Shown here: piece after piece, positions 32,794 through 33,933 of the stretch
How positions within the stretch are numbered: position 1 is the stretch's first letter
Layout of the letters: the number at the start of each line of letters is the position of its first letter
IMG/VR virus record: IMGVR_UViG_2923307698_000007
Span: 1-51,851 of that record
Direction: 5' to 3' (one strand)
DNA from: a virus
Lineage: Duplodnaviria > Heunggongvirae > Uroviricota > Caudoviricetes
Length of the DNA: 51,851 bases
Notes under the pieces: generated by a model
Database searches by the model: none
The model's input: the letters and a program-made list of their open reading frames with translations, nothing else
What the model was told of the DNA's origin: nothing
Position numbers and translations under genes: made by a program

Positions 32794-33392
32794 GCAACCT
32801 CACTTCTGCTGTTTCGCAGTTTTTTAAGTTTCTGTTGATACTCCGCCTTGATGGCCCTGCACTCTTCGACAGTCCAGCGATAGCGGTTATGGTTTGATTC
32901 GATTTCCTCTACTGCTTCCTGCCCGATGCGGCTAATCAGTTCGACGCGATACGGAACGAGATTTCCGCTTTTGTGCTGGTTGCACACCACGCATTGCTTG
33001 TGAATATTGCGTTCATCAAATCGGAGTTGAGGTGCCGCAGCAGTTGTCCGGTAATGTCCGGCATCCCACTGAGCAGACGTGAGCGTTCCGCACGAGATAC
33101 ATGGTAAGTCGCGGTCTCTTTCTCTGATGAAGGCGTTTACGGCTTGTTGGGCTTGTTTAATCCAGTAACTGCGGGGCTTTAAGGCGAGTTTTTGAATCTT
33201 AAGTTTATCTTTCTGTTTCTGCTCCTCTCGTCGTCGTTTCTTCTCTGCTGCTTTTTCCGCTTTTTCGCGTTCTTTACTTCGTCGTTCGAGTGCTATCTTG
33301 GTTCCACAAATCTCATTACACAAATATTGATTTTGATATTTTGGTATAAACCATTCATTGCAACATTTACATTTCCTTCGATAGATTCGCAT
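32790..33392 (-). CDS. ninG: NinG (Rap) recombination protein
   Basis: [32 protein letters not shown]...[18 protein letters not shown] matches recalled lambda NinG; start at internal ATG 33390-33392 with GGAG RBS. Confidence 0.8.
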
Positions 33393-33933
33393 AAGTGCTC
33401 CTTTCGTTGCCGGAAAAATCACCGTAATACTTATCTCGGGCTTCTTCAGCAACTAGTACCGCTAACTCCAGATCATCAAAGCATCCGAAGTGTTTACTCT
33501 TTCCATGGAATCCTAGCCTAACATTCCATTTTTTCTGTCGTTTGTGCCAAGTAACCCCTCTGCAACCTGATTTGCTATTCTTTCGGATCCTTATATTTCT
33601 TGAATTTTCTATTGGCAGGCATTCTCTTAAATTTTCTGGCCTATTGTCGGTCCTAATTCCATTAACGTGGTCAATTTGACCAGCAGGCCAACGATTATGA
33701 GTTATGTAAAAAACTAAGACGTGAGTTTTATATCTACGCCCATCTATCATGATCATTGAATAACCGTTGGAATCAAAAGTTCCAGCAACACTATTTAATG
33801 CTATCCTTCCCTGAGTGGGAACTTTCCATCTAAATACCCCGGTAGATTTATCGAAACTTAGTAACTCAAATATCCTTTTAACAGTTAAATCTTCTCTTTT
33901 ACGGTTACATCGTCTTCGCGCTGGTTTAGCCAT
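33367..33933 (-). CDS. HNH homing endonuclease with AP2-like DNA-binding domain
   Basis: [36 protein letters not shown] motif and [19 protein letters not shown]2-like motif; start MAKPARRRC with GGAGG RBS. Confidence 0.7.

Follow-up and report, generated by a model that had tools for sequence, protein, structure and literature searches.

A nuclease cassette at the 5′ end of ninG

The 51,851-nt Caudoviricetes sequence IMGVR_UViG_2923307698_000007, hereafter called the window, carries on its minus strand an HNH-AP2 endonuclease open reading frame (ORF) lodged in the 5′ end of the gene ninG (rap). An earlier sequence-only reading had called this ORF a homing endonuclease of the HNH-AP2 type, and the ORF lies where that reading had placed it, with Pfam HNH_3 scoring above its cutoff and AP2 below its gathering score. 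Comparison with phage lambda by blastn, Pfam searches and direct reading of the sequence gave the following features:

33947..33943, minus strand: Shine–Dalgarno (SD) sequence GGAGG of the nuclease ORF, 9 nt before its ATG
33947..33905, minus strand: lambda-type ninG start heading the nuclease ORF (blastn against lambda and direct reading)
33946..33905: equivalent to lambda 42419-42460, 95% identity over 42 nt, comprising 13 nt upstream of the ATG and ninG nt 1-29 (blastn)
33933..33931, minus strand: ATG of the nuclease ORF, which is the ninG-type ATG
33933..33367, minus strand: HNH-AP2 endonuclease ORF, 188 aa, RefSeq WP_001108084.1, annotated "HNH endonuclease"
33918..33905, minus strand: direct-repeat copy 1, CGAAGACGATGTAA, lambda-type ninG codons 6-10, at the left junction
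33904..33309, minus strand: foreign AT-rich cassette, 596 bp, 37% G+C (GC), replacing 64 bp of lambda ninG (42461-42524)
33732..33613, minus strand: HNH_3 domain of the nuclease, residues 68-107 (Pfam PF13392)
33567..33421, minus strand: AP2-like domain of the nuclease, residues 123-171 (Pfam, below gathering score)
33403..33398, minus strand: AAGGAG SD of the substitute ninG start, 5 nt before the ATG at 33392 and inside the HNH coding sequence
33392..32790, minus strand: full-length NinG/Rap ORF, 200 aa (Pfam PF05766, phrog_171, blastn)
33392..33309, minus strand: cassette-borne substitute ninG 5′ end, 28 codons, 27% GC (alignment)
33380..33367, minus strand: direct-repeat copy 2, CGAAGGAAATGTAA, substitute ninG codons 5-9, its TAA being the HNH stop
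33347..33309, minus strand: scrambled AT-rich patch, nt 46-84 of the substitute ninG, a putative immunity patch
33308..32790: equivalent to lambda 42525-43043, 97% identity, remainder of ninG (blastn)
32784..32129: equivalent to lambda 43233-43888, 96% identity, ninI (blastn)

The three lambda-matching blocks are collinear with lambda, and alignment with the insert-free lambda ninG set the cassette boundaries listed above. GC content is 49-52% in the flanks but drops to 39% across the HNH body and to 27% over the last 84 nt of the cassette, which judged by its composition is foreign. In Escherichia coli TUM1880 the cassette lies within a lambda-like ninE-ninF-cassette-ninG-ninH-ninI array collinear with lambda 42097-42460 and 42525-43888, providing a clean filled site to set against the empty site of lambda.

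Nucleotides 1-29 of ninG (codons 1-9 plus 2 nt, encoding MAKPARRRC) open the nuclease ORF, and the ORF and lambda ninG share the DNA ATGGCTAAACCAGCGCGAAGACGATGTAA before diverging. The sequence-only reading had noticed both the GGAGG ribosome-binding site and the resemblance of MAKPARRRC to the native NinG N-terminus; the site is present and the lambda NinG sequence agrees, with the match over 42 nt indicating shared DNA rather than chance likeness between peptides. Aligned relatives of the nuclease do not possess the MAKPARRRC head, their conserved core corresponding to approximately residues 16-177, and no alternative start codon occurs between M1 and this core, so that the nuclease relies on the initiation signals of ninG. 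Residues 1-10 are a ninG-derived head, read from the original SD, ATG and first nine codons of ninG, and the C-terminal tail is a read-through across the new ninG SD and start. The nuclease inherits the ninF/ninG overlap and NinG re-initiates in the nuclease 3′ end, an arrangement that appears to keep operon coupling; a scan for promoters and terminators around the cassette returned none above shuffled expectation.

Because the cassette provides a new SD, an ATG and 28 codons, both the nuclease and a full-length NinG are encoded. The latter (200 aa, versus 204 annotated in lambda and 201 in H-19B) matches PF05766 over profile positions 5-192 of 193 (E = 1.1e-82) and phrog_171 (E = 5e-116), and its body is lambda-type from TGTGGAACC onward. 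The sequence-only reading had NinG restarting at an internal ATG that overlaps the nuclease 3′ end. The overlap exists (26 nt, 33392..33367), but the ATG is a substitute start carried by the cassette, which aligns with the native ninG ATG, with one codon fewer. NinG is neither truncated nor restarted internally; the cassette brings a complete replacement front end. Similarly, of the proposed in-frame invasion by a free-standing homing endonuclease, the in-frame use of the start is borne out but not the pure insertion, as 596 bp replace 64 bp; homing is an interpretation taken up below. The HNH-less form of the N-terminus is native NinG, and no upstream start lies in frame with the NinG body.

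For ninG of lambda, H-19B, Stx2 II, VT1-Sakai and Salmonella phage SE21, the initial 150 nt were aligned with the cassette copy. Nucleotides 13-45 of the substitute are H-19B/P22-like (27/33 identical; H-19B/P22-type peptide RRKCKICKEWF) and are followed by the 39-nt patch, which has a GC content of 21% and agrees with lambda at 15/39 and with H-19B at 17/39 positions, against 31/39 between lambda and H-19B. The patch falls exactly where five diverse alleles without the homing endonuclease gene (HEG) are near-invariant over ~40 nt after GAATGG (GAATGGTTTCACCCGGCATTCTCAAATCAGTGGTGGTGC), and it turns the peptide HPAF(S/A)NQWWCSPE into IPKYQNQY(W/L)CNEI. From this placement, it looks like a putative cleavage-immunity patch. 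The N-terminal Cys cluster C-x2-C...C-x3-C of the H-19B and P22 alleles, which we take to be zinc-binding, is kept in the substitute NinG (C8, C11, C25 and C29).

The nuclease ORF is flanked by the two 14-nt direct repeats, which are imperfect (copy 2 matches copy 1 at 11/14 nt). As both consist of ninG codons for RR(R/K)CK, the structure amounts to a ninG 5′ end that has been duplicated, partially and homeologously, on either side of the nuclease. In-frame "excision" between the repeats was accordingly dropped as evidence, since, with both copies being homologous ninG codons, it is not an independent observation.

Two variants of the substitute 5′ end were seen. At window position 33322 NinG has Leu24 (TTG). 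Almost every other locus with the cassette encodes Trp24 (TGG) instead, a residue that is otherwise conserved throughout NinG (NQWWC); the Leu24 variant is rare, occurring also in E. coli 2013C-4991, and is possibly mildly deleterious. In E. coli 27_141091 (locus L012, 3603-4816), the insertion sequence IS1203 sits 37 nt into the substitute ninG 5′ end and parts the nuclease from a shortened annotated NinG.

The domain architecture of the nuclease is that of the HNH-AP2 homing endonuclease family. Its HNH_3 match is strong (PF13392, E = 4.2e-11, 42.7 bits, cutoff 24.8), the protein is assigned to phrog_99 "HNH endonuclease" (E = 1.4e-71), and all aligned relatives keep D88, H89, N101 and N110 of the catalytic motif. 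An AlphaFold2 model (mean predicted local distance difference test score, pLDDT, 87.8) scores lower at its ends, which fall outside the fold (residues 1-10, mean pLDDT 65; residues 180-188, <50), and predicts an AP2 fold with strands at 127-130, 135-142 and 145-152 followed by a helix at 155-173. The best matches of the model in the Protein Data Bank (PDB), as found by Foldseek, are I-HmuI (1u3e) and AP2 domains (probability 1.00 for the latter); the AP2 part superposes on AtERF1 (1gcc) with a root-mean-square deviation of 1.3 Å over 51 residues, and WRI1 and TEM1 are matched as well. Sequence searches of the PDB returned only a weak AP2 match for the nuclease (E = 0.19) and none for NinG.

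The closest non-self relatives, at ≤44% identity, are free-standing HNH genes of lytic phages; of the contigs bearing the two nearest, one is T7-like, and the other is unannotated, with no recorded ninG-family match. Among the GTDB representative genomes, the nuclease matched a single Planctomycetota sequence (39% identity). An HNH protein of Salmonella phage 64795_sal3 aligns from residue 1, but was rejected as a counterpart, its gene adjoining primase and helicase genes rather than ninG.

Distribution and diversity of the cassette

Of 5426 complete E. coli genomes, 537 carry the 671-bp cassette region at ≥80% coverage, almost always with ≥99% identity; the Prokaryotic Genome Annotation Pipeline (PGAP) labels it "HNH endonuclease" and "recombination protein NinG". 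The substitute 5′ end used alone as query likewise returned 537 genomes (568 places), and neither the cassette nor the substitute ninG 5′ end was found without the other. The lambda-type empty site occurs in 834 of the 5426 genomes, making this a presence/absence polymorphism at one fixed site; the lambda-type ninG body was found at 2437 places in 1168 genomes. Among 50,697 phage records, the nuclease and the substitute N-terminus are confined to SH2026Stx1 and AU6Stx1 (four records), all other NinG proteins being ≤63% identical over the 42 N-terminal residues.

We then compared 61 HNH-positive loci from E. coli genomes, phages and IMG/VR, with differences counted relative to the window. The cassette junctions are identical in 61/61 loci. 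The cassette differs at 0-6 of 512 nt (nucleotide diversity, π, 0.0043), and the substitute 5′ end at 0-2 of 84 nt in the 59 loci where it is intact, its ORF being intact in ~531 genomes. In the adjoining ninG body, 0-56 of 519 nt differ (up to 10.8%), the first polymorphism appearing 8 nt past the boundary. This near-invariant segment is embedded in at least 12 combinations of flanking genes: upstream lies either ninF or a 590-aa reverse-strand ORF, with an IS30 remnant in O157:H7, and downstream ninH and/or ninI, followed by one of two Q types.

Segregating changes in the nuclease ORF comprise 12 synonymous and 11 non-synonymous ones, where 21% would be expected to be synonymous (P ~0.001). 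The non-synonymous changes are mostly singletons, and of the common changes five are synonymous and one is non-synonymous. By these counts, the nuclease ORF is under purifying selection.

Intronless homing and its alternatives

Taken together, the fixed-site polymorphism, the foreign composition, the selected ORF, the near-invariance across backgrounds and the linked scrambled patch fit intronless homing, and we think it probable that the locus holds a free-standing HNH-AP2 homing endonuclease cassette that spreads through the 5′ end of ninG in this manner. Homing is suggested here by family membership, presence/absence polymorphism and population pattern. During lytic replication, with the nin operon transcribed, the nuclease would use its AP2 domain to bind ninG alleles that lack the HEG, and would cut them. 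Its probable target is a conserved stretch, richer in GC, that encodes EWFHPAF(S/A)NQWWC and lies a little 3′ of where the cassette is inserted; cleavage may fall in or near GAATGGTTTCACCC(T/G)GCATTC...GTGGTGGTGC. Repair of the break from a cassette-bearing phage or prophage would copy the cassette in, and the cassette allele would itself be immune because the target stretch has been replaced by the scrambled patch. AP2 domains reportedly favour GC-rich sites (PMC10448857, citing Magnani 2004), and the low GC of the patch would agree with such a preference.

Several observations weigh against this proposal. Cleavage, mobility and target site of the nuclease are all putative. The AP2 match in Pfam is weak (E = 1.8e-4, 22.2 bits, below the gathering score of 33.3), and the Foldseek E-values of the nuclease model are weak too, at 0.01-0.1 and all >0.01. 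Protein searches with the nuclease found no sequence between 44% and 99% identity and hence no donor lineage, and the 42-aa substitute NinG N-terminus used as query returned only E. coli NinG fragments, again giving no donor lineage. E. coli strain 113 (NZ_CP028680.1) carries a cassette-bearing ninG at 1229304-1230456 (locus L079, 4305-5457) and, on the same chromosome, a HEG-less lambda-type ninG at 3738721-3739341 (locus L080, 2504-3124) in which the candidate target is intact; the latter copy sits in a degraded prophage with a truncated Q. The presence of both alleles on one chromosome indicates that the nuclease does not convert resident copies in lysogens. Such coexistence would follow from silence of the nin genes in lysogens, and is equally compatible with an enzyme that is inactive or cuts elsewhere. 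Finally, the same pattern could result from a single ancestral insertion that ordinary homologous recombination then carried through the mosaic lambdoid phages.

Developed into an explanation of its own, this last point would make the cassette a passive mosaic module that entered once by illegitimate recombination and has moved since by general homologous recombination only, its nuclease no longer homing or serving in another role, such as cutting competing phages or acting as a DNA-binding regulator. We hold this to be possible, although on the unlikely side. The junctions shared by every one of the 61 loci are what a single entry would leave, lambdoid nin regions are highly mosaic in any case, and the empty lambda-type site does persist beside the cassette in strain 113. 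A passive module sits poorly, however, with purifying selection on an ORF whose catalytic motif is intact, and with a cassette diversity (π 0.004) far below that of the ninG body, which suggests a recent sweep across backgrounds; moreover, drift leaves unexplained why the patch coincides exactly with the most conserved stretch of the HEG-less alleles.

Other explanations do away with a functional NinG, with a free-standing gene or with the borrowed start. It is very unlikely that ninG has been inactivated, the downstream ORF being a decaying remnant with a fortuitous new start. The first 28 residues are indeed strongly unlike all other NinG proteins, the window allele has lost a conserved tryptophan at position 24 and IS1203 interrupts the substitute 5′ end at one locus, but the PF05766 match is nearly complete, a strong AAGGAG SD stands 5 nt before the ATG, the Cys pattern is preserved, and the 84-nt segment is close to invariant in the 59 intact loci, with its ORF intact in ~531 genomes. 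Carriage of the HNH gene by a self-splicing intron or an intein is scarcely credible, even though the upstream ninG start and the ORF share one frame and a precise deletion between the imperfect flanking repeats would leave ninG in frame. An Rfam search of 33150..34150 gave no match at E ≤ 1, the ORF takes up the entire insert so that no space remains for a ribozyme core, and no repeat position yields a U-ending 5′ exon together with a G-ending intron; as for an intein, the ORF ends in a stop, and Pfam shows HNH_3 and AP2 alone, with no Hint/intein domain. The chance that MAKPARRRC is the nuclease's own N-terminus, resembling NinG by coincidence in a gene lying between ninF and ninG, is practically negligible: the 42 nt at 95% identity to lambda include the untranslated SD region, and the head is absent from the nuclease relatives and is predicted to be disordered.

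Several known systems come close to the ninG cassette, the nearest in concept being the mobE-split nrdA of phage Aeh1, the T4 seg and mob cassettes and the ShiLan HNH. HNH-AP2 homing endonucleases (Magnani et al. 2004, as cited in PMC10448857) include the "IPA-HNH" HEGs of Vibrio phage ICP1 (PMC10448857); they share with the ninG nuclease an N-terminal HNH_3 and a C-terminal AP2 domain, and are free-standing phage genes located at genetic-exchange boundaries. By contrast, the ninG nuclease, which is ≤44% identical to any sampled relative, resides in temperate lambdoid prophages, inside a coding gene and without a start codon of its own. Intronless homing has been described for the T4 seg and mob genes (PMC2988022, PMC2790892). 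These resemble the ninG cassette in the lack of an intron or intein, in a presumed target within a neighbouring or host gene of HEG-less genomes, in a donor allele that differs in sequence at the target and, putatively for the ninG cassette, in the exchange of flanking markers. Both seg and mob genes are intergenic, with starts of their own, whereas the ninG nuclease is fused to the first nine codons of its host; unlike them, the ninG cassette carries a replacement host 5′ end, and its cleavage is predicted. In the mobE-split nrdA of Aeromonas phage Aeh1 ("genes in pieces"), a HEG reportedly lies inside a coding gene without an intron and with host function retained. There, nrdA is split into two reassembling polypeptides, whereas ninG gives a single full-length NinG from a substitute start, having donated nine residues. 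The best structural match of the nuclease half, I-HmuI of Bacillus phage SPO1, is an HNH homing endonuclease that is intron-encoded, with other DNA-binding modules and no AP2 (18% identity, Foldseek E-value 0.012). The "hidden" HNH in the methylase gene of actinophage ShiLan (PMC11855218) also has overlapping reading frames and no intron or intein; in that case the insert is read through in frame as a part of the host protein and the HNH is concealed in another frame, whereas the ninG nuclease takes the host start and the host re-initiates.

The object itself is not new, since RefSeq and two Stx1 phage records carry annotations of both the nuclease and NinG. Our literature search found no paper on an HNH gene in ninG or on the AU6Stx1/SH2026Stx1 gene, and none on the way the start is captured, on the substituted 5′ end or on the putative immunity patch. 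To our knowledge, homing endonucleases are well studied in T4-like lytic phages and hardly at all in temperate lambdoid phages. The cassette is present in about one-tenth of complete E. coli genomes, mostly Shiga toxin (Stx)-producing E. coli (STEC; O157:H7, O111, O26), and in Stx1 phages. The system is compact and directly testable, with an empty site in lambda, a filled site, a candidate 39-nt patch and a host gene, rap, with known genetics. For annotation, the first nine residues of the nuclease and the first 28 of NinG differ in origin from the rest of each protein.

A more far-reaching scenario, which we consider rather doubtful, is that the cassette is an active homing element of lambdoid and Stx prophages, and that breaks in ninG drive the exchange of Q/late-regulation and toxin modules between co-resident or co-infecting phages. 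Such breaks would lie 0.7-1.3 kb upstream of Q and, in SH2026Stx1 and AU6Stx1, ~2 kb upstream of stx1. If active, the nuclease would give rise to hot spots of recombination beside Q and stx, which could help to explain the mosaic boundaries of the nin region; were the whole scenario true, a selfish nuclease would be a motor of Stx-phage mosaicism, and the arrangement would stand as a distinct insertion strategy, with the host start captured and a pre-immunised replacement 5′ end brought along.

The surrounding nin region

In the window, ninH is absent: the ninG stop overlaps the ninI start (32785..32793), with no counterpart of lambda 43044-43232. At other cassette-bearing loci ninH, ninI or both are present. 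Further downstream, a 162-aa Q-family antiterminator is encoded at 31643..32131 (minus strand). The region of E. coli 2013C-4991 that is 100% identical runs on into tRNA-Ile and into genes for a TerB-family protein, a DUF3927 protein and a SASA/NanS-type esterase, and Stx1 phages with the same cassette have stx downstream of Q in the corresponding region.

The nin regions of related prophages hold more HNH or NUMOD4 genes, which lie beside ninB, behind Q, or in the space from ninB to the methylase gene (locus L004, 1137-1724 and 5716-6228; L009, 1154-1756; L017, 1960-2109). The ninF of 14EC007 is split by an HNH remnant at the point between lambda 42374 and 42379. Nuclease genes thus seem to use the nin region as a landing zone in general.

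On the other side of the cassette, the window has the 590-aa ORF noted above (34509..36281, plus strand) in the interval from ninE to the nuclease, which in other phages holds ninF. The ORF is AT-rich (35% GC), belongs to phrog_9230 (unknown function) and has a Ser/Thr-rich N-terminus, without a match in Pfam, NCBIfam or PADLOC; NCBIfam and PADLOC searches with the nuclease, NinG and this neighbour together gave nothing useful except a 14-bit match to the ZorE HNH motif. Approximately half of the cassette-bearing loci have the 590-aa ORF, indicating that it is independent of the nuclease. A promoter-like TTGACG-18-AATAAT precedes it at 34379-34408. The AT-rich spacer between this ORF and the nuclease contains a hexanucleotide tandem repeat, (AAATAG) x 10.8, at 34128..34192. 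Matches to SH2026Stx1 and AU6Stx1 measure 1562 and 1502 nt, respectively, a difference of 60 nt, with the SH2026Stx1 match falling into two pieces, which suggests that the (AAATAG) array may vary in length.

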